Positions 22,638 through 49,263 of a stretch of 64,000 nucleotides of DNA are shown one piece after another. The stretch is from an uncultured Planctomycetia bacterium. GTDB taxonomy: Bacteria; Omnitrophota; Gorgyraeia; 1-14-0-20-64-10. Both the position numbers and the translations under genes were made by a program. Location: the NCBI GenBank assembly GCA_964373805.1, contig CAYJWF010000001.1:47181-111180 (forward strand), written 5' to 3'. A model generated the notes under the pieces. The model searched no databases. It saw only the letters and a program-made list of their open reading frames with translations, and was not told the DNA's origin. Position 1 is the first letter of the stretch. Every line of letters starts with the position of its first letter.

Positions 22638-22672
22638 GTCATTGCGAGGAACGATGGTGACGAAGCAATCTC
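22638..22672. repeat. REP-like repeat family copy (GTCATTGCGAGGAACGATGGTGACGAAGCAATCTC)
   Basis: Family consensus GTCATTGCGAGGARCGAAGTGACGAAGCAATC; other copies 27483-27560, 44254-44322, 45811-45860, 49228-49263. Confidence 0.75.
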
Positions 22673-24051
22673 CTACAAGCGAGATCGCCACGCCCCCGCT
22701 TAAAGCGGGGGCTCGCGATGACGTACGGTTAGAAACGCGGGAGATGCTCCTTAACGTGGGGCCGGCCCATCCGGCGATGCACGGGATCATCCGGATCGTC
22801 TTGAAACTGGATGGGGAGACGATTCGCTCGAGCGATGTGGAGATCGGGTACCTCCATCGGGGTTTCGAAAAGATGTCGGAAGTGGTCACCTATAACGGGG
22901 TGATCCCTTACGCCGATCGGTTAAACTACGTCTCACCCCTCATCAACAACGTAGGCTACTGCATGGCCGTCGAGAAGCTGCTCGGGATCGAAACCCCGGA
23001 GCGATGCCAATACATCCGGGTGATCGTATCGGAAATCTCTCGGGTCACCGACCATTTGACCTGCATTGGGGCCTCGGCCATGGAACTCGGGGCCTTCACC
23101 GTGTTCCTCTACATGATCAAGGCCCGGGAGTTTCTCTGGGAGTTGGTGGAGGTGGTGACCGGGGCGAGGCTCACCGTTTCCTATTGCCGAGTGGGGGGAA
23201 TCAAGGCCGACCTGCCGGAGGGATTTTCCGATCGGTGCCGGAAGGCGATCGCCGAGACTCGGAAGGTGCTGGTGGAGGTGGACAAGCTCTTGACCCGGAA
23301 TCGGATCTTTGTCGACCGGATGAAAGGGACCGGTCGGATCTCCCAGGAGGAAGCGATCTCCTACGGGATCACCGGTCCTTTCTTAAGAGCGACCGGGGTG
23401 AACTACGACGTTCGCAAGGTTTCACCCTATTTGGTGTACGACCGGCTGCAGTTTGACGTGCCGCTCGGTTCCCATGGGGACAATTTGGACCGATATTACG
23501 TCCGGATGGAGGAGATGGAGCAGTCGATGCGGATCATCGAGATCTGCCTGAAGGGGATTCCCGCCGGGCCTATTGGAGTTGAGCCGGAGACCGGCAAGCC
23601 CATCTCTGCGGCTGAGATGGTTGATAAAGGAAAGATGGGCCGGATCCATGAGATTGCCGACAAGGTGGCGGTGACCGACCCTACTTTGGAAGGAGCCTCC
23701 AAACCGGTTTACGGAGGGATCGCTGCCGGGCAGAAGCGGGTTTTCCTGCCGCCCAAAGAGGATACCTACGGGAACATCGAGGGCCTCATGCAGCATTTCA
23801 AGCTGGTCATGTTTGGGCATGGTATCCGGCCCCCTCAGGGAGAGGTTTATTTCCCGGTCGAAGGGGCCAACGGCGAGTTGGGATTCTACGTGGTGAGCGA
23901 CGGTTCGGACAAGGCGTACCGGGTTCGGGTGCGGCCGCCCTGCTTTACCATTATGTCGGCGTTACCGAGGCTGCTGACAGGCGATATGGTGGCCGATCTG
24001 GTCCCGACCTTTGGGTCGGTCAACATGATCGGCGGTGAGCTCGACCGATGA
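22654..24051 (+). CDS. nuoD: NADH-quinone oxidoreductase subunit D
   Basis: LNVGPAHPAMHG 49-kDa subunit signature; ATG 22654 lies inside REP-like repeat (ATGGTGACGAAGCAATCTCC). Confidence 0.85.
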   Translation: MVTKQSPTSEIATPPLKAGARDDVRLETREMLLNVGPAHPAMHGIIRIVLKLDGETIRSSDVEIGYLHRGFEKMSEVVTYNGVIPYADRLNYVSPLINNVGYCMAVEKLLGIETPERCQYIRVIVSEISRVTDHLTCIGASAMELGAFTVFLYMIKAREFLWELVEVVTGARLTVSYCRVGGIKADLPEGFSDRCRKAIAETRKVLVEVDKLLTRNRIFVDRMKGTGRISQEEAISYGITGPFLRATGVNYDVRKVSPYLVYDRLQFDVPLGSHGDNLDRYYVRMEEMEQSMRIIEICLKGIPAGPIGVEPETGKPISAAEMVDKGKMGRIHEIADKVAVTDPTLEGASKPVYGGIAAGQKRVFLPPKEDTYGNIEGLMQHFKLVMFGHGIRPPQGEVYFPVEGANGELGFYVVSDGSDKAYRVRVRPPCFTIMSALPRLLTGDMVADLVPTFGSVNMIGGELDR

Positions 24052-24077
24052 CTTCTTGAAGAGGATGACGGTTTGAA

Positions 24078-25886
24078 ATGGATTTTAAGCAGCTAGAACC
24101 GAAGGCGGCCGAGATCATCGCGCGGTACGAGCAGAAACAGGCGGCGATGCTGCCACTTTTGTGGCTCCTCCAGGAGAGGATCGGCTACATTCCCGTGGAG
24201 GGGGAGGCCTGGGTTTCGGAGAAGTTGGGCGTCAGCATCGCCCATGTGGATGAGGTTGTCTCCTTCTATACCCTGTTCCATCGAAAGCCGGTTGGTAAAC
24301 ACCACATCCAGGTTTGCACGACGCTCCCCTGCCTCTTAAACGGGGCCAAACAGGTTTTGGCCCAATTGGAGGAACGGCTAGGAATCGGGGTAGGGAAGAC
24401 TTCTTCCGATGGGAAGGTGACCCTTTCCACGGTTGAGTGCCTCTGCGCCTGCGAAGTGGCGCCGGTGGCCCAGGTCAACGACCGATACGTAGGGCCGTTG
24501 ACCCCGGAGTCGGTCCCGTCCTTCCTAAAAACGGTGTCTGACACCTCGCAGTTGCGAGAAGCGGTGTCAGACACCACCTACGTTTCCACCGATGGGCCGG
24601 TTCTCTCCAGGCGATTCAGGAACGCCGAGGGGAACTGGTTTGATGCCTATGTCGCCGATGGAGGGTATCAAGCGGCGAAGAAGGCGCTGACCTCCATGAC
24701 GCCTCAACAGGTGATCGACGTCGTCTCCCGGTCGAACCTTCGTGGACTGGGAGGGGCAGGCTTTCCGACTGGAAAGAAATGGGGGTTTGTCCCCAAGAAC
24801 AGCGCGAAGCCGGTCTATTTGGTGGTCAACGCCGATGAAGGGGAACCAGGCACTTTCAAGGATCGGTACATTCTGGAGCGGGACCCCCATGCCCTGATGG
24901 AAGGGATGATCATCGCTGCTTACGCCATTGGGGCGCACAAGGCGTACGTCTACGTTCGGGGGGAGTACGTCCGGCCGTTCCACCGGTTCTCGCAAGCGGT
25001 CCAAGAAGCTACCCAACACGGATGGCTGGGGAAGAAGATCCAGGGAACCAGTTTTGACCTGGAGGTGGTGGTTCATCGAGGGGCTGGGGCCTACATCTGT
25101 GGGGAAGAGACGGCCCTGTTGACCTCTCTCGAAGGAGGCAAAGGTTTCCCCAAATTAAAGCCGCCGTTTCCGGCGATCTCTGGGCTTTTCAAGTGTCCCA
25201 CCATGGTGAACAACGTGGAGACCCTGGCCTGTGTTCCACCGATCGTTCGAAACGGTCCCGAGTGGTTTGCGAAGCTGGGAACCCTTAAGCAGGGAGGGAC
25301 CCGCCTGTTCAGCCTCTGTGGGCATGTCAACCGTCCTGGCCTATACGAGGCCCCGGTGGGGGTAAGCTTAAGGGAGCTCATCTATCATCATGCCGAAGGG
25401 ATTCGAGGAGGCCGCGAGCTTAAGGCGGTTGTCCCCGGCGGAATCTCGGCCAAGATCTTGACCGCCCAGGAGATCGATGTGGGCATGGACTTCGATTCGC
25501 TTTCGGCGGCCGGGACGATGGCCGGATCGGCCGGGGTGATTGTGATGGATGAGACGACCTGCATGGTGGAGGCCCTGGTGAGCGCGGCCCGCTTTTTTGC
25601 CGATGAGTCCTGCGGGCAATGTTCCCCTTGCCGGGAAGGGACCGGCTGGATCCTGAAGATCCTGACTCGGATGAAGGAGGGCCAGGGCCGTCCGCAAGAT
25701 TTGGAGAGTCTCCTTTCCATTGCGGGGAACATGGAGGGCAAGACGATCTGCGTCTTTGCCGATGCGGCCGCTTGGCCGGTGCAGAGCTACATCACGAAGT
25801 TCCGGGAAGAGTTTGAATACCACGTCCGAGAGGGGCGGTGCGATTTAGAGGATCACCCGTTCGTCCTTAAGCATGTCGAAGGATAA
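24078..25886 (+). CDS. nuoEF: fused NADH-quinone oxidoreductase subunits E and F
   Basis: N-terminal 24-kDa NuoE (CTTLPC...CLCACEVAP) and C-terminal NuoF (GLGGAGFPTG, CGQCSPCREG) in one 602-aa ORF; junction carries a palindromic repeat. Confidence 0.8.
   Translation: MDFKQLEPKAAEIIARYEQKQAAMLPLLWLLQERIGYIPVEGEAWVSEKLGVSIAHVDEVVSFYTLFHRKPVGKHHIQVCTTLPCLLNGAKQVLAQLEERLGIGVGKTSSDGKVTLSTVECLCACEVAPVAQVNDRYVGPLTPESVPSFLKTVSDTSQLREAVSDTTYVSTDGPVLSRRFRNAEGNWFDAYVADGGYQAAKKALTSMTPQQVIDVVSRSNLRGLGGAGFPTGKKWGFVPKNSAKPVYLVVNADEGEPGTFKDRYILERDPHALMEGMIIAAYAIGAHKAYVYVRGEYVRPFHRFSQAVQEATQHGWLGKKIQGTSFDLEVVVHRGAGAYICGEETALLTSLEGGKGFPKLKPPFPAISGLFKCPTMVNNVETLACVPPIVRNGPEWFAKLGTLKQGGTRLFSLCGHVNRPGLYEAPVGVSLRELIYHHAEGIRGGRELKAVVPGGISAKILTAQEIDVGMDFDSLSAAGTMAGSAGVIVMDETTCMVEALVSAARFFADESCGQCSPCREGTGWILKILTRMKEGQGRPQDLESLLSIAGNMEGKTICVFADAAAWPVQSYITKFREEFEYHVREGRCDLEDHPFVLKHVEG
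24533..24575. repeat. hairpin of two 13-mers GGTGTCTGACACC / GGTGTCAGACACC with inner palindrome, at nuoE-nuoF junction
   Basis: ggtgtctgacacc tcgcagttgcgagaagc ggtgtcagacacc; codes KTVSDTSQLREAVSDTT. Confidence 0.75.
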
Positions 25887-25889
25887 CCG

Positions 25890-27503
25890 ATGCCGACACT
25901 AACCATTGACGGCAAGTCGATCACCGTGCCGGAGGGGACGACCGTCATTCAGGCGGCCGAAAGCCAAGGGATCTTCATCCCTCGGTACTGCTACCATCCG
26001 GGGCTTTCCATCGCGGGGAACTGCCGAATCTGTCTCGTGGAGATCGAGAAGAACCCCAAGCTGCAGATCGCCTGCAACACCCCGGTCGTCGAGGGAATGG
26101 TGGTCCGCACAAACTCCCCTCGGGTTTCGCAGGGCCAACAGTCGGTGCTCGAGTTTCTCCTCATCAACCACCCGTTGGACTGCCCGGTCTGCGACCAGTC
26201 CGGCGAGTGCGACCTTCAGAACTTCTACCTCAAGTACGGGCTGTACGATGCTCGGTTTAGGGAGCAAAAGGTCAAGAAGCCGAAGGTCGTTCCCATTGGC
26301 CCGACGGTGATGTTGGACGCCGAGCGTTGCATCCTCTGCTCCCGATGTGTCCGGTTTACCGATGAGATCACGAAGACCGGGGAGCTCGGGATTTTTAACC
26401 GCGGTGATCAGGCCGAGATCGGGCTGGGGCCGGGCAAGGTTCTGGACAACCGATATTCCGGCAACGTGGTGGACATCTGCCCGGTCGGGGCCTTGACCGA
26501 CCGGGATTTCCGGTTCAAGGCACGGGTCTGGTATCTTTCCACCTCGCCATCGATCTGCAACGGTTGTTCCCAAGGATGCAACATCGAACTCCATGATGTG
26601 CTCGATCGGCCGCATTTGAGCGGGGGCGCCCGGGTGATGCGGATAAAACCGCGGTATAACGCCGAGGTCAATCAATGGTGGATCTGCGATGAGGGCCGCT
26701 ACGGTTATAAATTCATCGACCAGGACCGCCTGCGGAAGGTACTTCGCCATGGAGTGGAGAGTTCCTGGGAAAAGGCGTTGTCGGAGTTGGCCGAGGGCTT
26801 AAGACAGGTCCATCTGGAGGCCGCACCGCATCGATTAGGGGTACTTCCATCGGCCCAACTGACCCTGGAGGAGCTGTTCCTCATCCGAAAGCTGTTCAAG
26901 GATCTTCTCGGGGTGCCGTATTGCACAGCGGATGTCCCAGCCCGGCCAGGGTATGCGGACGATTTTCTCATCAAGGCGGATAAGAACCCCAACACCCGAG
27001 GGGCGACTCTTCTGGGTTTAGCGGGCGAGGGGGTTCCTCCGGCTGCCCAGGTGATCGAGGAGATTCAAGCCGGTCGAATCAGAGCCCTCTGGGTCTTTGG
27101 CCACGATCTCGTGGAGCTGTTCGGGGAGGCCCTGGTTAAGGATTTGGCAAAAAGGCTATGCGTATTTATCTTTCAGGGTTCCAACGTGAACGGAACCGCT
27201 CGCTACGCCCATTGGGTCCTGCCCAGCGCCGTGTATGCCGAGAAGGAGGGGACCTTTGTGAACGTCCACGGGCGCCTCCAGCGGATCTTTCAGGCCTTTG
27301 AACCCCTTCCAGAGGCTCGATCCGATAGCGAGATTCTTCTGGATCTGTTCGATCACCTGAACCTGCCGGTTCCGGGCCGGACGGCAGAAGAGATCTTCCA
27401 CGCGGTGGGGGAGGCGGTACCCATCTTCTCGGGGCTCACCTACGAGAAGATCGGATTGCAGGGAACACAACTGGTGAACTCGTCATTGCGAGGAGCGAAG
27501 TGA
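25890..27503 (+). CDS. nuoG: NADH-quinone oxidoreductase subunit G (short form)
   Basis: N-terminal 2Fe-2S and 4Fe-4S Cys clusters (CYHPGLSIAGNCRICLVE, CPVCDQSGEC, CILCSRCVRF). Confidence 0.8.
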   Translation: MPTLTIDGKSITVPEGTTVIQAAESQGIFIPRYCYHPGLSIAGNCRICLVEIEKNPKLQIACNTPVVEGMVVRTNSPRVSQGQQSVLEFLLINHPLDCPVCDQSGECDLQNFYLKYGLYDARFREQKVKKPKVVPIGPTVMLDAERCILCSRCVRFTDEITKTGELGIFNRGDQAEIGLGPGKVLDNRYSGNVVDICPVGALTDRDFRFKARVWYLSTSPSICNGCSQGCNIELHDVLDRPHLSGGARVMRIKPRYNAEVNQWWICDEGRYGYKFIDQDRLRKVLRHGVESSWEKALSELAEGLRQVHLEAAPHRLGVLPSAQLTLEELFLIRKLFKDLLGVPYCTADVPARPGYADDFLIKADKNPNTRGATLLGLAGEGVPPAAQVIEEIQAGRIRALWVFGHDLVELFGEALVKDLAKRLCVFIFQGSNVNGTARYAHWVLPSAVYAEKEGTFVNVHGRLQRIFQAFEPLPEARSDSEILLDLFDHLNLPVPGRTAEEIFHAVGEAVPIFSGLTYEKIGLQGTQLVNSSLRGAK

Positions 27504-27560
27504 CGAAGCAATCCCGTTTTAAGGACGAGATTGCTTCGCCCCTGCGGGGCTCGCAATGAC
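27483..27560. repeat. REP-like repeat, inverted pair between nuoG and nuoH
   Basis: gtcattgcgaggagcgaagtgacgaagcaatc ... gagattgcttcgcccctgcggggctcgcaatgac; supplies nuoG TGA and nuoH ATG. Confidence 0.8.
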
Positions 27561-28638
27561 CGGAATCGACCTTTGCATTAAACTGGCCTTGGCGGGGCTC
27601 GTCTTCTTTGGGGTCCTCAACCTGGCCGGTCTCCACACCTGGGTGGAGCGCAAGCAATCGGCCATCATGCAGGACCGGATCGGCGCGAACCGGGCCTCGA
27701 TCTTTGGCCTGCGCCTCTTTGGCCTGTTTCATCCTTTGGCCGACGCGATCAAGATGTTCACCAAGGAAGATTTTATTCCGGCCCACGCGGATCGGCTTCT
27801 TCACACCCTGGCTCCATTTCTCTCGGTCTTCTTTGCCCTCGTCGCTTTTGCCGGCATCCCGTTTGGAGATCGGCTCTTTCTGGGGGATCGGGTGATTGAT
27901 CTCCAAGTGGCCAAGATCGACGTCGCCCTCCTCTACATCTTTGCCATGCTCTCCTTGGGGGTTTATGGAGTGATCTTGGCCGGTTTCGCCTCCCGGAACA
28001 ACTACGCCCTGTTGGGATCTTTGAGGGCCTCGGCCCAGATGCTCTCCTACGAGGTCACCTTGGGGATCGCCATCGTCGGGGTGGTGATGAGTTTTGGAAC
28101 GCTGGACCTCCAGGAGATGGTCCGAGCTCAGGGGAGATACCTCTTCGGGTGGATTCCGATGTGGGGGATCCTGTTGCAGCCGGTCGCCTTTTTCATCTTC
28201 TTGACCGCCGCCTTGGCGGAGACGAAACGGGTCCCGTTCGATCTGCCGGAAGGGGAGTCGGAGATCATCGGCTACTTTGTCGAGTACAGCGGCATGAAGT
28301 TTGGGATGTTCTTCTTAACCGATTTCATCGAAACGGTGATGGTGGCTTGTCTGGCCACCACCTTATTTTTGGGAGGGTGGCAGGTTCCGTTTCTTTCTCC
28401 GGACGGCTTCCACTTTCCGTGGGGCGGGCTTCTCTCGGTTAAGCCTTTGGGGTACACCCTCTTAGGGGTAGCGAGCTTCACGGTGAAGGTGTTGGTCTTC
28501 TGCTGGCTGTTCATGGCGATTCGCTGGACGCTGCCTCGGTTTCGGTACGATCAGCTGATGCACCTCGGGTGGAAGATCTTGTTCCCCATCTCGGTAGCCA
28601 ACGTGTTGGTGACCGGATTGCTCTTACTGGTGGTGTGA
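27556..28638 (+). CDS. nuoH: NADH-quinone oxidoreductase subunit H
   Basis: Polytopic membrane protein, QDRIGANR motif; ATG within REP-like repeat. Confidence 0.85.
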   Translation: MTGIDLCIKLALAGLVFFGVLNLAGLHTWVERKQSAIMQDRIGANRASIFGLRLFGLFHPLADAIKMFTKEDFIPAHADRLLHTLAPFLSVFFALVAFAGIPFGDRLFLGDRVIDLQVAKIDVALLYIFAMLSLGVYGVILAGFASRNNYALLGSLRASAQMLSYEVTLGIAIVGVVMSFGTLDLQEMVRAQGRYLFGWIPMWGILLQPVAFFIFLTAALAETKRVPFDLPEGESEIIGYFVEYSGMKFGMFFLTDFIETVMVACLATTLFLGGWQVPFLSPDGFHFPWGGLLSVKPLGYTLLGVASFTVKVLVFCWLFMAIRWTLPRFRYDQLMHLGWKILFPISVANVLVTGLLLLVV

Positions 28639-29382
28639 ATGCCGCGTAAACGGGAACTGACGTTCTGGGAACGAATTTACCTACCGGAGATTGTCCGGGG
28701 GGTGTGGATTACCTCTCGTCACTTCTTCGTTAATCTCTTTCTCCACACGGCACATCTCTTTGGGCTGTTCAAGGACCGCGCGGCCTCGGTCACCTTTCAG
28801 TATCCGGAGCAGCCCCGACCGTTGGCTCCCCGTTTAAGGACTCGGCATCGGTTAACGGTTCGGCCAGAGCCCCGCGCTGACGCGCGGGACTTTTCTGGAT
28901 TGGCCGCTGACGCAGCGGCTGGCGCTGTCGGAAGCGCCACCACGCGCTCCGGCGCAGCCAGAAACATAGAGGAAGGGACTCCCCGGTGTGTGGCCTGCAT
29001 GCTCTGCGAGACGGTCTGCCCGGCCAAATGCATCACGATCGTCGCTGGAGAGCACCCGGATCCGAACGTGGAGAAATATCCGATTCGGTTCGACATTGAT
29101 TTAGGGGTCTGCGTCTACTGCGGCTACTGTGTCGAGGCCTGTCCGGAGGATGCCATTCGGATGGACACCGAGATCCTGGACATCGCCGCCTATTCTAGGG
29201 CCCAGATGAAGCTGGACATCCATGAGCTCATGGATCCCAAGCTGCGCAAGCCGGTGAACCAGTGTGAACTAAGGTTTCCACACCAATGCGCCCTGCACGG
29301 TGGTCAGATGAAAGGGAACTGGCAAGACGTCTATGGGAAAACGGAACAGGGACTGTCCCCGCAGGGGACTGTCCCTGGCTAA
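28639..29382 (+). CDS. nuoI: NADH-quinone oxidoreductase subunit I with in-frame ~35-aa repeat-encoded insert and C-terminal extension
   Basis: Two 4Fe-4S motifs CVACMLCETVCP and CVYCGYCVEACP; insert PRADARDFSGLAADAAAGAVGSATTRSGAARN between N-terminal segment and first ferredoxin motif. Confidence 0.8.
   Translation: MPRKRELTFWERIYLPEIVRGVWITSRHFFVNLFLHTAHLFGLFKDRAASVTFQYPEQPRPLAPRLRTRHRLTVRPEPRADARDFSGLAADAAAGAVGSATTRSGAARNIEEGTPRCVACMLCETVCPAKCITIVAGEHPDPNVEKYPIRFDIDLGVCVYCGYCVEACPEDAIRMDTEILDIAAYSRAQMKLDIHELMDPKLRKPVNQCELRFPHQCALHGGQMKGNWQDVYGKTEQGLSPQGTVPG
28866..28972. repeat. single copy of the same ~105-bp palindromic element, in-frame inside nuoI
   Basis: gagccccgcgctgacgcgcgggacttttctggattggccgctgacgcagcggctggcgctgtcggaagcgccaccacgcgctccggcgcagccagaaacatagagg. 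Confidence 0.8.
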
Positions 29383-29385
29383 AAT

Positions 29386-30387
29386 ATGCGTTATCGAGAA
29401 CTTGCCAAGAGTGGTTTAAAACTTTCCGAGATCGGGTTCGGGGTCTGGACCGTCTCCACCACCTGGTGGGGAGTCAAGGAGGAGTCGGTCGGCGTCGATC
29501 TGCTGCGGAAGGCTTTCGATCTGGGGATCACCTTTTTTGATACCGCCGATACCTACGGTAACGGGCTGGGGGAGACGATCCTAGCGAAGGCGCTGGGAGA
29601 CAAAAGAGATCAATTCGTGATCGGCACCAAGGTCGGCTACGATTTCTATCACCACACCGGCCGAAGAGGGCAGGAGGAACTCCCCCAAGATTTCTCGTCC
29701 AACTATCTCGAGTTTGCTTTAGGGGAATCGCTCAAGAGATTGGGGACAGATTGCGTCGACCTGTATCAGCTCCACAACCCGCGGATCGATGTGATTGAGC
29801 GCGACGAGGTGTTCCAGACCCTTGAGCGTTTCAAGCGGGAAGGGAAGATCCGAGCCTATGGGGCCGCCTTGGGGCCGGCCATCGCTCCTCGGCAGATCGA
29901 AGAAGGAAAGGCCGCCATTGCCCGAGGATTCAATTCGGTCCAGATCATCTACAACCTCTTGGAACAGATGTTGGGGGAGGCCTTGTTTCCGGCGGCCCAA
30001 GGGAGGGATTCCAGTTTCTTGGTACGGGTGCCCCATGCCTCCGGCCTTCTCGATGGGACGGTGACGCGCGAGACCACCTTCTCCGAGACCGATCACCGGT
30101 ATCATCGGGTCTCGACCGACGATCGAAAGCGGCTCTGGCAGGAAGAGGGGTTAAAGAAGGTGGAGCAACTGTCATTCCTCACCGAGGGAACCAGCCGGAC
30201 CTTAGGCCAAGCAGCCTTGAGATTCATCTTAAGCGAACCGACCGTGGCTTCGGTCTTGCCCAACCTCTACAACGAACAACTCCTCACCGAATTCGCCGCT
30301 GCAAGCGACGTTGCCGATCTTTCTTCAGAGGAGCTGGCCCGAGCCGTGGCTGCGGCTAGAGGAAGCCGCACCACTTGTAAGCTCTGA
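29386..30387 (+). CDS. aldo/keto reductase family oxidoreductase
   Basis: [11 protein letters not shown], ...GASGLL AKR motifs. Confidence 0.75.
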
Positions 30388-30448
30388 GTCGCCCAGCTTC
30401 AGGCCTCCTAAGCTCGGAGCGGCCACCTCGAAGATTTGTAGAGAAGTA

Positions 30449-30476
30449 TTGACAATTTAAAGTACCACTTTAGAAT
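30449..30476 (+). promoter_or_regulatory. sigma70-like promoter TTGACA-N16-TAGAAT giving a leaderless transcript of the ATPase gene
   Basis: -35 30449-30454, -10 30471-30476, ATG at 30484; AT-rich context unlike surrounding DNA. Confidence 0.5.
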
Positions 30477-30483
30477 AGCATAT

Positions 30484-31704: not shown

Positions 31705-31708
31705 GAAT

Positions 31709-31748
31709 CAGGGGGACGCTCCATTTGGGGACACTCTACTGTGGAAAG
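31709..31748. repeat. 40-bp direct repeat copy 1 flanking the AbiE cassette
   Basis: cagggggacgctccatttggggacactctactgtggaaag; ~92% identical to 33075-33115. Confidence 0.7.
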
Positions 31749-31836
31749 AGCCTGCATTTTCCACAAGGGTCTGTCCCTTTTTGATTGAGTTATTTATCAT
31801 ATCAGTATACAATATTGTATACCACTGGTTTAATTT

Positions 31837-32394: not shown

Positions 32395-33140
32395 GCCGCT
32401 TGTTTGAACGGGACACGCATAAAAGGTATCTTGCGCTTTTACTGACAGAGATGGCAAAGGCATTTCCTGAGAAGATCGCGTTTAAAGGCGGCACCTGCGC
32501 TCATTTTTTTTACAACCTTCCGCGATTCTCATTTGATCTGGATTTCGATATGGTCCGAGCCTTTAAGGCCGTCGATGTCGATCGATTCCGTGAGCTTGTG
32601 GAAAAACATGGACAAGCGAAGGATTTTTATGACAAGGCAAACACCTTATTTTGCCTTTTTGATTACGGGAAAGGCTATCCCAATATCAAAATCGAGCTGA
32701 ATAAGCGTGTGTGGACCCATAATGTTTATAAACCCGTCTGGTTGATGGGGGTGCCGATTTCTATTGCGGATGAAACCACGGTTCTTACGAATAAGCTGGT
32801 CGCGCTCACGGATCGAAAGACCGCGGTCGCGAGAGACTTATACGATATCTGGTACTTTTTAAAGGCGGGGTTTCCGGTCCACGATGCCCTTGTCCTCGAG
32901 CGCACCGGCAAGGATGCCCGAACCTATTTGGCATCCATCACCGCGTTTATCAAGAAAACCTATACGCCCCGTAACGTGTTGCACGGGCTGGGTGATGCGC
33001 TCGATGAAAAACAGAAGGCTTGGGCAAAGGATCATCTTGTTTCAGAAACCATACAGGAGATCAATCGGCGTGAGTCGGGGGGACGCTCCATTTTGGGACA
33101 CTCTACTGCGGAAAGAACCGCGTCCCCATCGCCACCCTAA
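32391..33140 (+). CDS. AbiEii/AbiGii-family nucleotidyltransferase toxin (DUF1814)
   Basis: FKGGTCAHFFYNLPRFSFDLDFD NTase core; C-terminal 20 codons read through direct repeat copy 2. Confidence 0.6.
   Translation: MSRLFERDTHKRYLALLLTEMAKAFPEKIAFKGGTCAHFFYNLPRFSFDLDFDMVRAFKAVDVDRFRELVEKHGQAKDFYDKANTLFCLFDYGKGYPNIKIELNKRVWTHNVYKPVWLMGVPISIADETTVLTNKLVALTDRKTAVARDLYDIWYFLKAGFPVHDALVLERTGKDARTYLASITAFIKKTYTPRNVLHGLGDALDEKQKAWAKDHLVSETIQEINRRESGGRSILGHSTAERTASPSPP
33075..33115. repeat. 40-bp direct repeat copy 2
   Basis: tcggggggacgctccattttgggacactctactgcggaaag. Confidence 0.7.
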
Positions 33141-40499: not shown

Positions 40500-40544
40500 G
40501 CTCCTATGGTTCCCATGGGGCCGGCGTGCTATGCTTAAAGTGAG

Positions 40545-40991: not shown

Positions 40992-41136
40992 GCCCATCCC
41001 AACTTCCTCTGCGGGTGCATCCCAAGTTTGTCGGTAAAGGGTTAAAATAAGAGGAACTCCCCGAAGAAAGGAGTTCCTCTACCGTCGGGTTGATTCTCCC
41101 TTTTCGCTGTGGTAAAGTCGTTTTAAGGAGATACCC

Positions 41137-41358: not shown

Positions 41359-41751
41359 GTGGAGCTTCCCCTCGTATTTGGAAAACCAATCCTCGTTCCG
41401 AGAGTCCGCGTCACTGGGCCAAAGGCCATCCGCGAGGTGGACCTATTCCTCGATACGGGGGCCCTTTATACCCTCCTCGCCGTTGATGTGTTACGTGAAG
41501 TTGGATGTGACCCGCTGGCTGCTCGTCGTCGCATTCCTATGGTGACTGCCAAGGGCGTCCTTACGGTTCCTGTTGTTCGAGTCCCATCCGTAGAGGTTGC
41601 CGGCTTTCGACTGAGGAACGTTTCTGTGCTTTGTCACGATATCCCTGAACTGGCCGAAGCGGCCGGATTACTTGGGCTTAACGTGTTGGAGTCGTTCATC
41701 ACTACGTTGGATTATGAGAAAAGGAAACTTCTCTTCCAGTTGTGGCGCTAA
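41359..41751 (+). CDS. retropepsin-like (clan AA) aspartic protease
   Basis: FLDTGALYT catalytic DTG motif in ~130-aa protein, GTG start abutting upstream gene. Confidence 0.6.
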   Translation: MELPLVFGKPILVPRVRVTGPKAIREVDLFLDTGALYTLLAVDVLREVGCDPLAARRRIPMVTAKGVLTVPVVRVPSVEVAGFRLRNVSVLCHDIPELAEAAGLLGLNVLESFITTLDYEKRKLLFQLWR

Positions 41752-42623
41752 AGATCCCTCTTTCTGAACTTCCCGCCGTTGCCAGAGAGATTCGTAAAGA
41801 AGTGGTCCGGATGCTGGGGGTGGCCGGTTCCGGGCATCCCGGCGGCTCTCTATCGGCGGCGGATATCGTGGCCACCCTGTTTTTCCACGTGATGCGGTAC
41901 GATCCGAAGAATCCCGATTGGGAAGACCGGGACCGGTTCGTCTTGAGTAAGGGGCACGGTTGTCCGGTCGTTTACGCGGCCATGGCGTTGGCCGGGTATT
42001 TTCCGCGAGAGCAGTTGATGACCTTACGAAAACTCGGCTCCCCGTTACAGGGGCATCCGGATCGGAAGCGCCTACCCGGTCTGGAGGCCTCTACCGGCTC
42101 CTTGGGGCAGGGGCTCTCCATTGCCAATGGGATCGCCTTGAGCGGCGCCATGGACCGAAAGGATTATTGGACCTTTTGCCTGATGAGCGACGGGGAGCTC
42201 CAGGAGGGGCAGAGCTGGGAAGCGGCCGCTTTCGCCGGGTTCCATCGGTTGGAGCGGCTCATCGCCATCGTCGATTACAATAAGTTCCAGTTGGATGGAG
42301 CGGTGGCCCAGATCAACGATCCGGAGCCCCTGCGGGCGAAGTGGGAAGCCTTCCGGTGGCACGTGCAGGAGATCGATGGGCACGATATCCCAAGGATCGT
42401 TCAGGCGATCGAGGCGGCGAAAGCGGTCAAGAAACAACCTCATATGATCATCGCCCATACGATCAAGGGAAAGGGGGTATCCTTCATGGAGAACAACAAC
42501 TATTTCCATGGGGTGGCTCCGAACGCCGAGGAGGCGCAAGCGGCTCTGAAAGAGCTGGAGGGTGACCCCTCTCTTTCGCAGGCGCTCATCGCCGCCGGCA
42601 AGGTGAAGACGGGCAACAAGTGA
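41742..42623 (+). CDS. transketolase, N-terminal (thiamine diphosphate-binding) subunit
   Basis: GHPGGSLS, GSLGQGLS TPP-binding motifs; split-transketolase arrangement. Confidence 0.8.
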   Translation: MALKIPLSELPAVAREIRKEVVRMLGVAGSGHPGGSLSAADIVATLFFHVMRYDPKNPDWEDRDRFVLSKGHGCPVVYAAMALAGYFPREQLMTLRKLGSPLQGHPDRKRLPGLEASTGSLGQGLSIANGIALSGAMDRKDYWTFCLMSDGELQEGQSWEAAAFAGFHRLERLIAIVDYNKFQLDGAVAQINDPEPLRAKWEAFRWHVQEIDGHDIPRIVQAIEAAKAVKKQPHMIIAHTIKGKGVSFMENNNYFHGVAPNAEEAQAALKELEGDPSLSQALIAAGKVKTGNK

Positions 42624-43609
42624 CGGTTATAGAAACCATGGAACGAAAACTGGGATGTGCCACCCGAGACGCGTACGGCCAGACCCTGGTCGAGTTGGGA
42701 AGAAACAATCCCCAGATCGTGGTGTTGGACGCGGATCTCGCCTCCTCCACGAGAACCCGGCTATTTGCCAAGGAGTTCCCGGACCGATTCTTTAATGTGG
42801 GGATCTCAGAGGCCAACATGGTGGGGATGGCCGGTGGGTTAGCTTCCTCTGGGAAAATCCCCTTTATCTCCAGCTTTGCCTGCTTCATGACCTGCAAGGC
42901 GTACGATCAGCTCCGGATGGCGGTGGCGTATCCCCATTTGAACGTCAAGGTGGTCGTTTCCCATGGTGGGATCAGCGTAGGAGAAGATGGAGTCTCCCAG
43001 CAGTCGATCGAAGACGTGGCCCTGATGACGTCGCTTGCCCATTTTACCGTGATCGTCCCGGCCGATGAGCATGCCACGCGGGCGCTGGTGAAGGAGGCCG
43101 CGTCAACGGTGGGGCCCATCTACCTTCGAACCGGAAGGCCCAAGGCCCCTTTGATCTATCAACAGTCGTCGGCCTTTTCCATGGGGAAAGGGAATCTGCT
43201 TCGCCAGGGAAAGGATGTCACCGTGATGGCCAACGGCCTATTGGTCTTTGAAGCGCTGGTGGCGGCCGAGGAGTTGGAGAAGGCAGGGATTTCCGCCGCC
43301 GTGGCGGATCTCCACACGGTTAAGCCGCTGGATGAGTCGCTGATTCTCTCTCAGGCGAAGGCCACCGGGGCGATTGTCACCGCCGAGGAGCACCAGATCT
43401 GGGGCGGCTTAGGTTCGGCGGTAGCCCGCATGGTAGCCCGGACGCATCCCGTTCCGATGGAGTTCGTGGCCATCCAAGACACCTATGCCGAATCGGGCAA
43501 GCCGGAAGAGCTGTTCGAAAAGTACGGGCTTACCTCCCAGCACGTCGTCGAGGCGGTCCGGCGGGTGTTGGAGAGAAAATCTAAAGGGGTCAGACCCCAT
43601 CAGCAATGA
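42620..43609 (+). CDS. transketolase, C-terminal (pyrimidine-binding) subunit
   Basis: Transketolase Pyr and C-terminal domains; last codons KGVRPHQQ encoded by GGGGTCAGACCCC repeat. Confidence 0.8.
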   Translation: MTVIETMERKLGCATRDAYGQTLVELGRNNPQIVVLDADLASSTRTRLFAKEFPDRFFNVGISEANMVGMAGGLASSGKIPFISSFACFMTCKAYDQLRMAVAYPHLNVKVVVSHGGISVGEDGVSQQSIEDVALMTSLAHFTVIVPADEHATRALVKEAASTVGPIYLRTGRPKAPLIYQQSSAFSMGKGNLLRQGKDVTVMANGLLVFEALVAAEELEKAGISAAVADLHTVKPLDESLILSQAKATGAIVTAEEHQIWGGLGSAVARMVARTHPVPMEFVAIQDTYAESGKPEELFEKYGLTSQHVVEAVRRVLERKSKGVRPHQQ

Positions 43610-44250
43610 AACTTTATCTTAAATCTCTCGAGTTAGGGCCCCTTCAAAACCTTGTCTATTTAATCGGCTGCCTCGAGACCCGAGAATCGGCCGTGGTCGA
43701 TCCGGCCTGGAATGTTCCCAAAATCTTGGAGACCGCCGTCCAGGATGAGATGCGGGTGACGACCGCGATCATCACCCACACCCATTTCGATCATGTGAAT
43801 GGCCTGTCGGATCTCTTGAAAGCGGTGGATCCCAAAGTGATCGTCCATAAAAAGGAGGCGGCTCAGCTTGCCATCGAGCGATCCAGCGTCCAGGCCGTCG
43901 AGGGAGGGCAAGAGATCCCCCTAGGAAACTTAAAGCTCTCATTCCTCCATACCCCAGGGCATACGCCCGGCTCTCAGTGCATCACCGTGGCCGATCGGTT
44001 GATCGCCGGGGATACCCTCTTCGTTGGGGGCTGCGGTCGTTGCGACCTTGCCGGCGGGGACCCCGAGGCGCTGTACCAGAGTTTGGTTCGATTGAACCAA
44101 CTCGACGATCGAACGATTCTCCACCCCGGCCATAACTACGCCGCTTCCCCTACCTCGACCTTGAGGGAGGAGAAGTCGTACAATCCGTTCTTGAAGGCCC
44201 CGAGCGTGGAGGGCTTCCTTCAGCTCGTTGGCGCCGTCCGAAAGCGGTAA
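43606..44250 (+). CDS. MBL-fold metallo-hydrolase
   Basis: THTHFDHVNG HxHxDH motif. Confidence 0.75.
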   Translation: MKLYLKSLELGPLQNLVYLIGCLETRESAVVDPAWNVPKILETAVQDEMRVTTAIITHTHFDHVNGLSDLLKAVDPKVIVHKKEAAQLAIERSSVQAVEGGQEIPLGNLKLSFLHTPGHTPGSQCITVADRLIAGDTLFVGGCGRCDLAGGDPEALYQSLVRLNQLDDRTILHPGHNYAASPTSTLREEKSYNPFLKAPSVEGFLQLVGAVRKR

Positions 44251-44253
44251 GGC

Positions 44254-44322
44254 GAGATTGCTTCGTTCCCATTGCGGAGTTTACCCTGAGAGCCATCGAA
44301 GGGCTCTGGGTCCTCGCAATGA
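44254..44322. repeat. REP-like repeat, degenerate inverted pair between MBL-hydrolase gene and folB
   Basis: gagattgcttcgttcccattgcggag ... gggtcctcgcaatgac. Confidence 0.6.
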
Positions 44323-44335
44323 CGGTGGTGGATGA

Positions 44336-44734
44336 ATGGACCGGATCCTGATGGAAGGGCTCAAAGCCGATGCCCATGTCGGGGTTCTCTTAAAGGAACG
44401 AGAGAAACGCCAGCGGATCTTGATCGATCTGGAGTTGGGGTTGGATTTAAAGCTGGCCGGTGAGAGGGACCGCGTGCAGGCGACGATCGATTACGTCGCG
44501 GTGGCTAAGGAAGTGAAGGATCTTGTGGAGGGCCGGTCTTTCCACTTGGTGGAGGCGATGGCCGAGGCGGTCGGAAAGCTGGTTTTAGAGCGGTTCAAAC
44601 CGGCTCAGGTTCGGGTCAGGATCCGGAAGTTTTCGGTTCCGGCAACGAGCTGGGTGGGTGTAGAGATGATCCGGCCTACGAGTTCCGGTAACTCGCGAAA
44701 GAGGTCGACGTCTCCCAGAGTCGGACCTCGGTGA
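44336..44734 (+). CDS. folB: dihydroneopterin aldolase
   Basis: FolB-like core ...TIDYVAVAKEV...VGVEMIRP; C-terminal tail overlaps queD on opposite strand. Confidence 0.6.
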   Translation: MDRILMEGLKADAHVGVLLKEREKRQRILIDLELGLDLKLAGERDRVQATIDYVAVAKEVKDLVEGRSFHLVEAMAEAVGKLVLERFKPAQVRVRIRKFSVPATSWVGVEMIRPTSSGNSRKRSTSPRVGPR

Positions 44735-45080
44735 CCGGAAAGCCTTTGGATTGGGCGTAGGTGAAGATCATCCGAGCCAGCGCCTCGGCGGTGGGATTCT
44801 CCTCGATTATGACGATGGGTTCCTTCAGGCTGTTTAAGTGCGGGATGATGAGATCCGCTCGGTTCAGGATCATCTTGTGATCCAGGGCGGTGTCGATCCA
44901 AGCCTGGATGCCCTGTTTAATCTCCTCGAAATCCATCACCATCCCCCGGTGGTCCAGTGTATTGCGGCTGAGCTCAATCTCCACCTTGGCGTTGTGCCCG
45001 TGGAGGAACCGACACTTCCCCTCGTAGTTCAACAGCCGATGGCCGTAGCAGAAATGAATCTCTTTGGTCACCTTGTACAA
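44676..45080 (-). CDS. queD: 6-carboxy-5,6,7,8-tetrahydropterin synthase
   Basis: CYGHRLLNYEGKCRFLHGHN motif. Confidence 0.8.
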   Translation of the reverse strand: MYKVTKEIHFCYGHRLLNYEGKCRFLHGHNAKVEIELSRNTLDHRGMVMDFEEIKQGIQAWIDTALDHKMILNRADLIIPHLNSLKEPIVIIEENPTAEALARMIFTYAQSKGFPVTEVRLWETSTSFASYRNS

Positions 45081-45142
45081 GAACGCTTCTCCTAGGGACA
45101 GTTCTCTTAAAGAGAACCGTCCCTGACTCGCCCCATGATACG

Positions 45143-45859
45143 ATGAAGCGACCGAAGGATCAAGCCACGGCCGTGGGCGTTTTGACCAGCGGCGGGGTGG
45201 AGTCGGCGGCTCTCTTGACCGAGGCCGTTCAACGATACGAGCGGGTTTACCCGATCTATGTCCAGAAGGGGTTCCAGTGGGAAAGGGTAGAGCTTTCCTA
45301 TTTAAAGAGACTTCTCAGTACCTTGGCCTGCGACGGGATGGCCCGGTTGACGATTCTCCGTCTGCCGGTAAAATCGATCTACGGATCTCATTGGAGCTTA
45401 GGGAGATTGAGGACGCCCGGTTCTAGAGCGCCGGATCAGGCGGTCTATCTGCCGGGGCGGAACCTCTTGTTGTTAAGCGGCGCGGCCCTTTTCTGTTGTT
45501 TGAGGAAGATCCCGGTGCTTTGGATCGGGATCTTGAGGGGAAACCCCTTCCGCGACGCCCGATACAACTTCTTGGAGGGGATCGGGAGATTAATTCAGGA
45601 GGCGCTGGAGGAGCCGATTCGGATTGTGGCTCCTTTGAGAGAGTTGAATAAGGCTGAGGTCATTCGGCGTTGGTCTGAGGTTCCATGGGGAAAGACCTTT
45701 TCCTGTCTCAATCCTTTCGGGCAGATCCACTGCGGCCGGTGTCAGAAGTGCGCGGAGCGAAAGGGCGGCTTCCGAGCGGTCGGGATTCCGGATCCAACCA
45801 CCTACGCACGCGCGTCATTACTTCGCTCCTCTCGCCTTCGCTCGGGGTCCTCGCAATGA
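45143..45859 (+). CDS. queC: 7-cyano-7-deazaguanine synthase-like PP-loop ATPase
   Basis: VGVLTSGGVESAAL PP-loop, C-terminal CLNPFGQIHCGRCQKC zinc site. Confidence 0.65.
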   Translation: MKRPKDQATAVGVLTSGGVESAALLTEAVQRYERVYPIYVQKGFQWERVELSYLKRLLSTLACDGMARLTILRLPVKSIYGSHWSLGRLRTPGSRAPDQAVYLPGRNLLLLSGAALFCCLRKIPVLWIGILRGNPFRDARYNFLEGIGRLIQEALEEPIRIVAPLRELNKAEVIRRWSEVPWGKTFSCLNPFGQIHCGRCQKCAERKGGFRAVGIPDPTTYARASLLRSSRLRSGSSQ

Positions 45860-45860
45860 C
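45811..45860. repeat. REP-like repeat, degenerate copy between queC and sdhC
   Basis: gcgtcattacttcgctcctctcgccttcgctcggggtcctcgcaatgac; contains queC stop. Confidence 0.6.
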
Positions 45861-45881
45861 GATGATAGGAGAATTTACACC

Positions 45882-46244
45882 ATGATTTACCGCGGCGGTA
45901 TCGGCCAGTGGTCTTGGGCTCTGCACCGCGTGACCGGCATCGGGGTGCTCCTGTTCCTTTTTACCCACATCTTGGATACGGCCCTCATCATGCTGGGTCC
46001 CCAATGGTACAACCGGGTGATCGGGATCTATCGGATGCCGATCTTTGGGCTCCTGGAGATCGGCCTATTTGCCGCGGTCCTGTACCACGCCTTAAACGGT
46101 GTGCGGATCGTTCTGTTCGATTTCTGGCCGGGGCTGACGGTCCATTACAAAACGATGTTCATGATTCAGATGGTCTTGTTCATGGTCGTCTTCCTTCCGG
46201 TCGCCTGGATCATGCTGGGGCACATCCTTCCTGGGGGGGCCTAA
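45882..46244 (+). CDS. sdhC: succinate dehydrogenase cytochrome b subunit
   Basis: 120 aa, three TM helices with His ligand. Confidence 0.7.
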   Translation: MIYRGGIGQWSWALHRVTGIGVLLFLFTHILDTALIMLGPQWYNRVIGIYRMPIFGLLEIGLFAAVLYHALNGVRIVLFDFWPGLTVHYKTMFMIQMVLFMVVFLPVAWIMLGHILPGGA

Positions 46245-46679
46245 ATGACCCGCCCTCCGGTGTTCATGAAAGGAAATCCTGATCTTGGGTATGGACATCC
46301 TAGGCCCTCCGGTGGGACGGAGTTGTACGCCTGGCTCTTCATGCGGCTCTCCGGGATTCTGCTGTTGGTGTTGGCCCTCGGGCATTTCTTCATCATGCAT
46401 CTTTTTAACAGCGTTCACACCATCGACTACGATTTTGTCGCGGCCCGGTACCTGGGACTTTTCTGGCGTGGCTATGATCTCGCCCTGCTGTGGCTGGCGA
46501 TGATCCACGGGATCAATGGAGCCCGCATGCTGGCCGACGATTACCTGCGTCCACCGGTTCGAGGGTGGGTGGTGAAGGGGCTGTATCTCGTGGGAATTTT
46601 GTTTCTGGTGTTGGGCACTTGGGTGATTGTAGCGTTCCAACCGATGGTGCCAGGCACCAAAACCCTGAAACTTTTATAA
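46245..46679 (+). CDS. sdhD: succinate dehydrogenase membrane anchor subunit
   Basis: 144 aa hydrophobic; position between sdhC and sdhA; last codons read into repeat. Confidence 0.65.
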   Translation: MTRPPVFMKGNPDLGYGHPRPSGGTELYAWLFMRLSGILLLVLALGHFFIMHLFNSVHTIDYDFVAARYLGLFWRGYDLALLWLAMIHGINGARMLADDYLRPPVRGWVVKGLYLVGILFLVLGTWVIVAFQPMVPGTKTLKLL

Positions 46680-46691
46680 AGTTAAGCCAAA

Positions 46692-46705
<14 letters not shown>
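46646..46705. repeat. MITE-like element: GGTGCCAGGCACC ... AACTTTTATAAAGTT ... GGTGCCAGGCAC
   Basis: Spans sdhD stop and sdhA start; supplies ATGGTGCCAGGCAC = MVPGT. Confidence 0.7.
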
Positions 46706-48458
<1,753 letters not shown>

Positions 48459-48521
48459 ATGGTACCAGGTACAATTTCGGCTCAACTTTTTAAAAGTTAT
48501 ACCGATTTTGTACCTGGTACC
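48459..48521. repeat. MITE-like element (GGTACCAGGTACA ... AACTTTTTAAAAGTT ... TGTACCTGGTACC)
   Basis: Between sdhA stop and sdhB; near-identical to 10887-10947. Confidence 0.75.
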
Positions 48522-48540
48522 GTTTTCGTACCGTTTTCCG

Positions 48541-49239
48541 ATGCAAGTAACCTTTAAGATTCTACGGTTCAATCCCGAGCAGGACCCCAAGCCGCACTGG
48601 GAGACCTACCCGGTGGAGTTGGAGCCGACCGATCGGGTGTTGGACGGCCTGGAGGCGATCAAGGGACGGCTGGATGGGACCTTGGCCTTGCGGCGCTCCT
48701 GCGCCCACGGGATCTGCGGCTCCGATGCCATGCTGGTGAATGGCCGGAATCGGTTGGCCTGCAAGGTATTGGTTAAAAATTTAAAGCAGCCGATCGCCAT
48801 TGAACCGATGCGGGGTTTTAAGGTTTTGAAGGACCTGATCGTTGACATGGAAGGTTTCTTTGCCAAGTACCGATCGATGAAGCCGTATCTGATCGAGGCC
48901 GGCCCAGCCCCAGAAAAGGAACGGCTTCAGTCGCCGGCCGAACGGGAACGGTTCGACGACACCACCAAGTGTATCCTCTGTGGGGCCTGCACGACCAGTT
49001 GCCCCTCTTTCTGGTCCAATCCGGATTATGTGGGACCGGCGGCGATCGTCCAGGCCCATCGGTTTCTTTTCGACAGCCGTGACGAGGGGAAGGAAGAGCG
49101 CCTGAAGGTTTTAAATACCTCGGATGGCGTCTGGCGCTGCCGAACGGTCTTTAATTGTGTGGAAGCCTGCCCGCGCGGCATCAACGTGACCCGCGCCATC
49201 GGCGAAGTGAAACTCGCGCTCATGAGTGCGTCATTGTGA
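48541..49239 (+). CDS. sdhB: succinate dehydrogenase iron-sulfur subunit
   Basis: CAHGICGSDAMLVNG, CILCGACTTSCP, CVEACP clusters; start ATG 48541; stop inside REP-like repeat. Confidence 0.85.
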   Translation: MQVTFKILRFNPEQDPKPHWETYPVELEPTDRVLDGLEAIKGRLDGTLALRRSCAHGICGSDAMLVNGRNRLACKVLVKNLKQPIAIEPMRGFKVLKDLIVDMEGFFAKYRSMKPYLIEAGPAPEKERLQSPAERERFDDTTKCILCGACTTSCPSFWSNPDYVGPAAIVQAHRFLFDSRDEGKEERLKVLNTSDGVWRCRTVFNCVEACPRGINVTRAIGEVKLALMSASL

Positions 49240-49263
49240 GGAACGAAGTGACGAAGCAATCTC
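49228..49263. repeat. REP-like repeat copy at sdhB stop
   Basis: gcgtcattgtgaggaacgaagtgacgaagcaatctc. Confidence 0.75.

Follow-up and report, generated by a model that had tools for sequence, protein, structure and literature searches.

Repeat units and gene context in the window

The 64,000-nt stretch of bacterial DNA analysed here (contig CAYJWF010000001.1), referred to as the window, contains genes of the nuo and sdh operons together with five loci of a short repeat, which has the formula (C/T)GTC-ATTGC-GAG-[centre]-CGAA-GCAAT-C. We read it as a CGTC-tagged repetitive extragenic palindrome (REP) that is likely to be the single-stranded DNA (ssDNA) site of a small GIY-YIG nuclease. The Pfam-confirmed neighbours of the repeats are nuoC, nuoD, a fused nuoEF (24078-25886, where NuoE and NuoF are joined in a single 602-aa open reading frame, ORF), nuoG, nuoH, nuoI, a metallo-beta-lactamase-fold gene, folB, queC, sdhC, sdhD, sdhA and sdhB.

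An earlier note on this DNA (the original prediction) had assigned the five loci to one REP-like family concentrated at gene boundaries. Head and tail matches and direct reading of the sequence agree with this, and show the units to be mostly in head-to-head pairs at gene ends. The 10-nt head TCATTGCGAG is matched seven times in the window with at most one mismatch, and all seven matches lie inside the five loci, as do all five exact matches of the tail CGAAGCAATC. The 32-mer on which the original prediction was based matches, with up to three mismatches, only 27482-27513 and 49230-49261 (chance expectation in the window 0.00), and the two conserved ends define the family better. The term REP-like is also correct, given the CGTC or TGTC tag, the hairpin, the C-rich 3' tail, the head-to-head pairing and the intergenic site. 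The units are as follows:

22637-22673, plus strand: U1, CGTC-ATTGC-GAG-GAACGATGGTGA-CGAA-GCAAT-C-TCC, starting 18 nt past the nuoC stop
22681-22723, minus strand: U2, head-to-head partner of U1 and absent from the original list, a variant CGTC-ATCGC-GAG-CCCCCGCTTTAAGCGGGGG-CGTG-GCGAT-C-TCG with the outer helix compensated (ATCGC/GCGAT)
27481-27516, plus strand: U3, canonical, with the GA-rich centre GAGCGAAGTGA, supplying the last 7 codons and the TGA of nuoG
27526-27561, minus strand: U4, head-to-head partner of U3, with canonical ends and the GC-hairpin centre CCCCGCAGGGG, its head holding the nuoH ATG
44253-44324, minus strand: U5, head and tail exact, the centre of 47 nt partly rearranged, in the gap between the metallo-beta-lactamase-fold gene and folB
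45813-45861, no strand assigned: U6, a collapsed head-to-head dimer with heads CGTCATTAC... and ...CTCGCAATGACG at its ends and a degenerate interior
49229-49264, plus strand: U7, with one mismatch to the 32-mer
49265-49336, minus strand: probable partner of U7, with spacer GGTTTAAGG, the ATCGC-type tail GATCGCC and a GC hairpin, the head being lost

The tag is CGTC at 22637, 27481, 45813 and 49229 and, on the minus strand, in U2 (to 22723) and U5 (to 44324), and GGTC at 27561; the tails read C-TCC, C-CCG and C-TCG. Three of the five loci are clear head-to-head dimers and a fourth is the collapsed dimer with both heads, while at 44253-44324 no partner unit could be identified. The U2 type of variant is also present at positions 5792-5831 of a locus from another genome (L207). 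Comparison with these two sequences suggests, with low confidence, that 49265-49336 is a decayed partner of U7; this segment has no significant DNA fold (z = -0.2). A generic scan of the window for other CGTC subtypes found none beyond the units listed.

Several units contribute codons. As had been noted before, the nuoG TGA (27501-27503) is located inside U3, the nuoH ATG (27556) inside U4 and the sdhB TGA (49237-49239) inside U7, all three being read directly from the sequence; a C-to-T change in the head gave rise to the sdhB stop. A 360-aa database protein (P0001) is identical to the translation from the nuoH ATG at 27556. In addition, the queC TGA (45857-45859) lies inside U6, which ends 20 nt upstream of the sdhC ATG. 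The proposed nuoD start stands in part: U1 holds the sequence GAGGA-N3-ATG, with the ATG at 22654, and a check by hand confirms that it is in frame with nuoD. As the start of the gene it is one candidate, the next in-frame ATG being at 22744. The intergenic gaps are tiny, and therefore the units overlap gene ends and have become co-opted as codons. Since repeat sequence makes up the ends of nuoG, queC, sdhB, nuoH and perhaps nuoD, care is needed in this region with start and stop calls and with short "hypothetical" ORFs.

An ORF without a Pfam match is located downstream of sdhB (49155-49478). It contains a carboxy-terminal zinc-ribbon-like motif, YCPTCG...WWCPTCGYHESCADG. U7 and its probable decayed partner overlap with the 5' part of this ORF, so that its start is probably situated further downstream. 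Between this small ORF and a 2835-aa ORF that follows the sdh region (49638-58145), a long hairpin with a CCCCCC/GGGGGG clamp is found at 49487-49564. It had been taken as a relative of the repeats, which it is not: it contains no CGTC head or tail and is unique in the window, without a second copy there and without a T-run. Its folding energies are -25.3 kcal/mol as DNA and -48.0 kcal/mol as RNA (z = -4.4 and -5.5).

Anatomy and folding of the unit

Family statistics were drawn from a scan with one genome per species, which yielded at least 120 loci and in which 174 units were scored. GTC is preceded by C in 111 of the 174 units and by T in 55. After GCAAT comes an invariant C, which is part of the search pattern, followed by C or T at +1, A or C at +2 and G at +3. 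The centre between head and tail is modular and ranges from 5 nt to more than 40 nt. It is 5 nt long in 63 of the 174 units and 11 to 13 nt in 56 more. The commonest 5-nt centres are CGAAG (29), CGCAG (12), CGTAG (6) and CGGAG (4), which together describe C-GNA-G; the centres of 11 to 13 nt are typically GA-GC-GNA-GC-GA or a GC hairpin.

Base pairing was counted in 108 short and 78 long distinct units. The 5-bp helix ATTGC/GCAAT is Watson-Crick paired in 95-99%. It is followed by two non-Watson-Crick positions, of which 9.19 is G.A in 97 and 10.18 is A.G in 100 of the 108 short units. The inner pair covaries, being G-C in 88, A-T in 15 and G.T in 2 short units; the corresponding pair of the 78 long units is G-C in 48, A-T in 19 and C-G in 4. 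Variants compensated over the whole helix also occur, ATCGC/GCGAT in U2 (22681-22723) and ATCCC/GGGAT in L207. The CGTC strand thus folds into an unpaired (C/T)GTC tag, the 5-bp helix, a tandem G.A/A.G loop with an extra A, and a G-C pair. The top is a C-GNA-G triloop or an arbitrary GC hairpin, after which come the conserved C and a short C-rich tail. The d(GNA) triloop closed by a C-G pair is described as a very stable DNA mini-hairpin (PMC3201870, PMC4686876).

Where units are paired, the arrangement is head-to-head in 32 cases, divergent in 5 and tandem in 5. The spacers are mostly 20-32 nt long, often with CAG at the start and CTG at the end. Heterodimers, the halves of which differ in centre length, make up 25 of the 32 head-to-head pairs. 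As DNA, the pairs of the window form long hairpins (z = -4.8 to -7.1). The U1/U2 pair has a z of -4.8 as DNA and -5.8 as RNA, and the U3/U4 pair, 81% complementary, folds as DNA at -25.3/-28.7 kcal/mol (z = -5.9/-7.1).

Candidate RNA motifs were considered for the GA/GAA loop and rejected by hand: a kink-turn has the bulge on the other side, and the CUGA core of a hammerhead is missing. Across the whole window no Rfam family was found at gathering thresholds. Near 27.5 kb all matches are chance ones, such as mir-3158 with a score of 33 bits against a cut-off of 97.

Association with a small GIY-YIG nuclease gene

In a metagenome-assembled genome (MAG) of a planctomycete (locus L061, Planctomycetota), a 96-aa GIY-YIG ORF is flanked by a unit on both sides; it is the one GIY-YIG ORF that a motif scan found among the 120 loci listed. 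Pfam family PF01541 covers residues 6-78 of the protein (E = 5.9e-18). A further 80 metagenome loci were then fetched purely by similarity to this protein (59-73% identity). A unit is located within 200 bp of the gene in 77 of the 80, and on both sides of it in 52. Close to the gene there are 6.09 units per kb, against 0.27 per kb in the remainder of these loci, a 22-fold local enrichment. The nearest upstream unit is on the strand of the gene in 54 of 65 cases, and the nearest downstream unit on the opposite strand in 43 of 64, starting no more than 10 nt after the stop codon in 37 of 64. The CGTC ends therefore point outward from the gene. The association, like the structure and the distribution of the repeat, is a direct observation.

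The protein resembles SsnA, a 94-aa single-domain GIY-YIG nuclease that binds and cuts NTS (dRS3), the Neisseria member of the CGTC-tagged superfamily, CGTCATTCCCGCGMAVGCGGGAATCYRG (PMC11893778). Residues Y9, Y20 and E67 of the L061 protein have the same spacing as Y6, Y17 and E64 of SsnA. SsnA acts on ssDNA of the CGTC strand only, not on double-stranded DNA or RNA, and its key bases are the GTC preceding the palindrome and the C that follows (PMC11893778); both are conserved in the family described here. Of ssnA homologues, 71% are flanked by repeats on one side and 42% on both, and 81% of the genomes with more than 200 copies of the related SRM repeats encode an Ssn homologue (PMC11893778). 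NTS-type units are essentially absent from our 80 loci, in which there is one match. The L061 protein is 44% identical (E = 2e-26) to a GIY-YIG protein of L206, a relative of the source organism, the gene of which is bordered by NTS-like units. The sole match in the PDB is a weak one, to the UPF0213 GIY-YIG protein 1ZG2. Close relatives of the L061 nuclease were not found on viral contigs, though the repeat is common there.

Proposed function of the repeat

The reading that we favour, with a probability of roughly 0.7, is that the units are CGTC-tagged REPs, short DNA hairpins forming the ssDNA site of a cognate Ssn-type GIY-YIG nuclease, and that the copies in the window are passengers. The mechanism combines the gene-repeat association found here with the published biochemistry of the homologue. 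Each unit would be the recognition site of a small single-domain endonuclease encoded elsewhere in the genome, which would bind the hairpin only where it is folded in ssDNA, during replication, repair, transformation or conjugation, and would nick a few bases 5' of the tag. The gene for such a nuclease would normally be flanked by two units with their heads outward, and units would accumulate in intergenic DNA as head-to-head pairs. Those of the window would then be passengers in permissive intergenic spots, co-opted as stop codons of nuoG, queC and sdhB, as the start codon of nuoH and perhaps as that of nuoD. They would be transcribed and would fold in the mRNA as a side effect, not as their defining function. 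From the association and the homology we infer a specificity of the enzyme for this stem, its presence in the present genome and any cellular role.

A number of points weigh against this reading. No GIY-YIG gene is present in the 64-kb window, so the cognate nuclease is predicted to lie elsewhere in the genome. The specificity of the nuclease clade for this stem is suggested purely by co-location, and SsnA of N. meningitidis becomes inactive once the sequence of the palindrome is changed (PMC11893778). In two relatives of the source organism (L203 and L206, below), Ssn-like genes are flanked by CGTC units of the ATCCTCGC and ATTCCCGC (NTS-like) types, which are not of this family, and in a third (L204) dimers at the same nuo junctions as in the window could reflect local selection for a hairpin. 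The published SRM pattern, HGTCWYN(0-2)YYVSBRHN(0-5)WNVSBRGN(0-2)RNCYNB, matches 0 of 447 units of the family and none in the window. The NTS control does match this pattern; the flanks of the family fit HGTCWY and RNCYNB, and its stem TGCGAG...CGAAGCA fails the YYVSBR...VSBRG part. Because of this stem, published repeat counts would have missed the family. Finally, single units have weak folds of -2.7 to -8 kcal/mol that are not significant in the nearest-neighbour model. This model gives no credit for sheared G.A pairs or a GNA triloop bonus, and the omission of the triloop stability is why single units fold weakly in silico.

The repeats are thus an ordinary genome feature and members of a known, widespread class. 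To what is known of Ssn and SRM they contribute a subfamily that is GA-rich and modular, and published repeat counts are probably underestimates. The 96-aa enzyme and its 26-nt site with a GCGAAGC mini-hairpin also form a candidate nuclease-site pair for ssDNA tools. For the window itself, the finding matters mainly for annotation, and the repeats are not to be taken as operon-specific regulators.

Genomic distribution and a possible role in RNA

The original prediction suggested roles in mRNA processing, stability or differential subunit expression. The repeats would then be RNA cis elements, acting as 3'-exonuclease barriers, RNase processing sites or translation couplers that set the stoichiometry of the nuo and sdh subunits, as has been shown for some classical E. 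coli REPs. In the window several points favour this reading: all copies are located between co-directional genes and overlap stop or start codons, the GAGGA-N3-ATG of U1 is in the nuoD frame, and the dimers would be strong hairpins once transcribed into the polycistronic mRNA, with RNA folds of -42.7 and -48.3 kcal/mol (z = -5.4 and -5.8). A role in RNA was also argued for CGTC REPs by Di Nocera et al., from repeat location and G.T pairs (PMC3733652).

The position at gene boundaries holds in the window; a specificity for respiratory operons finds no support across genomes. The same 21 conserved bases are present in more than 12 bacterial phyla (at least 120 loci) and on many viral contigs. 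Among the matches listed, hosts include Bradyrhizobium, Sphingomonas, Novosphingobium, Chloroflexota, Patescibacteria, Bacteroidota, Cyanobacteria, Planctomycetota, Zixibacteria, Desulfobacterota, Sporomusa and Helicobacter. The unit is also found on plasmids and chromids of Novosphingobium, Methylosinus, Methylocystis, Halomonas and Legionella, where all matches fall in unannotated sequence, and is common on IMG/VR viral contigs. A literature search by sequence strings returned primers and unrelated papers only. Outside crude ORF calls lie 112 of 143 elements, though coding sequence makes up 86% of the DNA. All gap types are used across genomes: 43 of the 81 classified elements are in unidirectional, 22 in convergent and 16 in divergent gaps, the last of these speaking against a function in mRNA. 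Nor is there an orientation bias relative to transcription, single units being in the same direction in 15 and opposite in 8 cases in genomes, and same in 27 and opposite in 33 on viral contigs (p = 0.52); when pooled, 42 are same and 41 opposite. None of 120 randomly retrieved repeat loci of other genomes, among the matches listed, contains a nuo or sdh homologue, and clustering of the neighbouring ORFs of at least 100 aa in 120 genome loci revealed no repeat-linked family.

Viral contigs with three or more single units are strand-polarised: in 9 of 14 the units are unanimous, against about 2.7 expected by our own arithmetic. Examples are L328 (10:0), L223 (0:7) and L244 (0:4). The polarity does not follow gene direction and may point to a constraint that has to do with replication or ssDNA.

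Relatives of the source organism were compared at loci chosen via nuoH and sdhB, which therefore give no unbiased background. The nearest named ones are MAGs labelled "Candidatus Omnitrophica/Omnitrophota" (83-86% identity). Some kind of hairpin is present at the nuoG/nuoH junction in 4 of the 5 compared genomes, and REP dimers occur at nuoC/nuoD, nuoG/nuoH and sdhA/sdhB in GCA_016177405.1, both of which would suit a role in RNA. In L204 (83% NuoH identity), the head-to-head dimer at the nuoG/nuoH junction belongs to another CGTC subtype and starts after the same NuoG codons as in the window. The nuoC/nuoD junction has a dimer that includes a unit of this family, and sdhA/sdhB of the same genome has five CGTC units, two of them of this family. 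In L203 another hairpin is found at nuoG/nuoH. However, L202, a 93% identical relative, has a different sequence there and no REP, and L206 an essentially empty site, also without a REP. CGTC-unit stem types include ATTGCGAG, ATCGCGAG, ATCCCGAG, ATCCTCGC and ATTCCCGC.

L203 (GCA_016201735.1) and L206 (GCA_016196465.1) have an Ssn-like GIY-YIG gene of 94-98 aa in the nuo operon between nuoD and nuoE/F, at 2034-2330 and 1375-1659, respectively, inserted together with an unknown ORF. Neither the window nor L204 has this gene at the corresponding junction. The system is thus present as a whole in the lineage, where the nuo and sdh operons are recurrent landing places.

Three further points speak against RNA as the primary level of action. 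Of the two mixed ATTGC/ATCGC dimers seen, the one in the window has its T.G wobble on the sense strand and the one in L207 on the antisense strand. SsnA, the protein partner that has been characterised for the superfamily, does not bind RNA (PMC11893778). A set of 21 invariant bases across phyla is also hard to square with a generic hairpin function. An RNA role as the defining function is not favoured and we regard it as unlikely; as a secondary, co-opted effect it could exist alongside recognition by a nuclease.

Propagation of the repeats

We consider it doubtful that the CGTC hairpin pairs undergo copying or replacement in situ through a homing-like process that is driven by a nuclease and coupled to replication. 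The idea arises because the nuoG/nuoH junction carries this family in the window and another CGTC subtype in L204 and is empty in other relatives, because an ssn-like cassette is present in the same operon in two relatives, and because the viral units are strand-polarised regardless of transcription direction. If true, such a process would explain how a repeat class that has no transposase is able to propagate.

RAYT-REP systems are common, and the repeats might be classical REPINs mobilised by a REP-associated tyrosine transposase (RAYT, an HUH/Y1 enzyme) that acts on ssDNA hairpins. Inverted doublets with a spacer do look alike, and the window also seems to hold GTAG-type repeats. Yet the tag is CGTC or TGTC, not GTAG, no protein family is common to the neighbours in the 120 loci, and the co-localised gene is that of a GIY-YIG nuclease. 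The survey of CGTC REPs by Di Nocera et al. likewise reports no tyrosine transposase gene flanked by CGTC repeats (PMC3733652). This makes the REPIN explanation very improbable.

Least probable of all is that the dimer of about 80 nt is a miniature inverted-repeat transposable element, a deletion derivative of an insertion sequence (IS) moved by a DDE transposase via terminal inverted repeats of 11-13 nt: the dimer termini (C)GTCATTGCGAG/CTCGCAATGAC(G), the length of 75-110 nt and the variable presence among relatives would fit, but no target-site duplication is apparent in 82 dimers (direct repeats are at chance level for k = 2-6 and offsets 0-2), single units and dimers are equally common, the two halves of a dimer mostly have different centres, no transposase is linked, and conservation of the sequence extends over more than 12 phyla. 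We know of no IS end that is conserved like this unit.

Other repeats in the window

A 60-nt palindromic repeat that is unrelated to the CGTC units is located at 10888-10947, 46647-46706 and 48462-48521. Its copies, of the form GTACCAGGTAC...AAAAGTT...GTACCTGGTAC, are 72-87% identical to each other, and the core is present in no fetched locus. Two of them occupy the sdhD/sdhA and sdhA/sdhB junctions and the third another site. Because the 60-nt repeat fills these two junctions, every sdh boundary has a palindromic repeat except sdhC/sdhD, where the genes abut.

A cluster of GC-rich repeats is inserted in frame in two essential genes, in nuoI (28867-28976) and, on the minus strand, in a SufB/D-like ORF (cluster 2344-2558, ORF 1653-3176). 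The two clusters share 92 nt at 92% identity and add the sequence EPRADARDFSxLAAxAAAGAVGSATTR... to both proteins, NuoI being 247 aa long. They contain small hairpins and the sequence ACGTAGGGGTAGGCCGCGC..., resembling GTAG-tagged REPs, and the cluster of the SufB/D-like ORF has a 42-nt tandem duplication at 2425-2508. Another short repeat family is formed by the palindrome GGGGTC(A/T)GACCCC with conserved flanks, in four copies (6867-6892, 7872-7897, 19837-19862 and 43574-43598). A 48-nt direct repeat, GAATCAGGGGGACGCTCCATTTGGGGACACTCTACTG..., is found at 31705-31752 and 33072-33119, with the copies 90% identical.

Comparison with known repeat systems

The superfamily of CGTC-tagged REPs was described by Di Nocera, De Gregorio and Rocco in 2013 and comprises CGTC-1 to CGTC-4, including Neisseria dRS3 and Rickettsia RPE-4 and RPE-6 (PMC3733652). 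As defined there, a unit has an unpaired CGTC or TGTC tag (CCTC being allowed), a stem of 8-9 bp that opens with A-T pairs, a loop of 4-5 nt and a short, unpaired 3' tail with the consensus CCA. Head-to-head dimers with structured spacers are described as predominant, tail-to-tail ones as rare and head-to-tail ones as negligible; heterodimers are reported for CGTC-2 and CGTC-3. The repeats are described as intergenic near ORF ends, with occasional codon donation and no dedicated transposase (PMC3733652).

The family of the window shares the tag, a stem opening with A-T and T-A, the short 3' tail, head-to-head dimers, spacers of 20-100 nt with complementary ends, common heterodimers, the intergenic location and the lack of a transposase. 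It differs in that the stem is not fully Watson-Crick paired, being formed by 5 bp, a tandem G.A with a bulged A, and 1-2 bp. If the G.A pairs are counted, the stem is 8 with a 5-nt loop (CGNAG), while the long centres exceed the stated loop. The resulting geometry of 8 + 5 + 8(+1) is the one stated for CGTC-2, and N. aromaticivorans, a listed CGTC-2 host (PMC3733652), carries this unit. Going by the described geometry and this shared host only, the family is probably of the CGTC-2 type. CGTC REPs are reported from 5 phyla in that survey, which bulged forms may have escaped (PMC3733652), whereas the present family is found in more than 12.

The NTS/SRM-SsnA family (cd10448; Chenal et al. 2025, PMC11893778) has a hairpin core within flanks identical to those seen here, CGTCAT...ATC(Y)NG. 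Common to both systems are also a nuclease gene that encodes about 95 aa and one GIY-YIG domain, flanked by repeats on both sides, and the same Tyr/Tyr/Glu spacing. The two are set apart by the stem of the window family, which does not conform to the SRM pattern, and by the lack of an ssn gene in the window. A role in natural transformation has been shown for N. meningitidis alone.

Classical GTAG REPs, bacterial interspersed mosaic elements and REPINs with their RAYTs (E. coli, Pseudomonas) are similar in being short, imperfect, intergenic palindromes in inverted doublets. Here too a small nuclease-type enzyme recognises the hairpin in ssDNA, and the repeats flank the gene of this enzyme. For some of them, side effects on mRNA stability are documented. 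The tag is GTAG there and CGTC here, and the enzyme is an HUH/Y1 tyrosine transposase there and a GIY-YIG protein here. Classical REPs are lineage-specific, whereas the family of the window is near-invariant across phyla.

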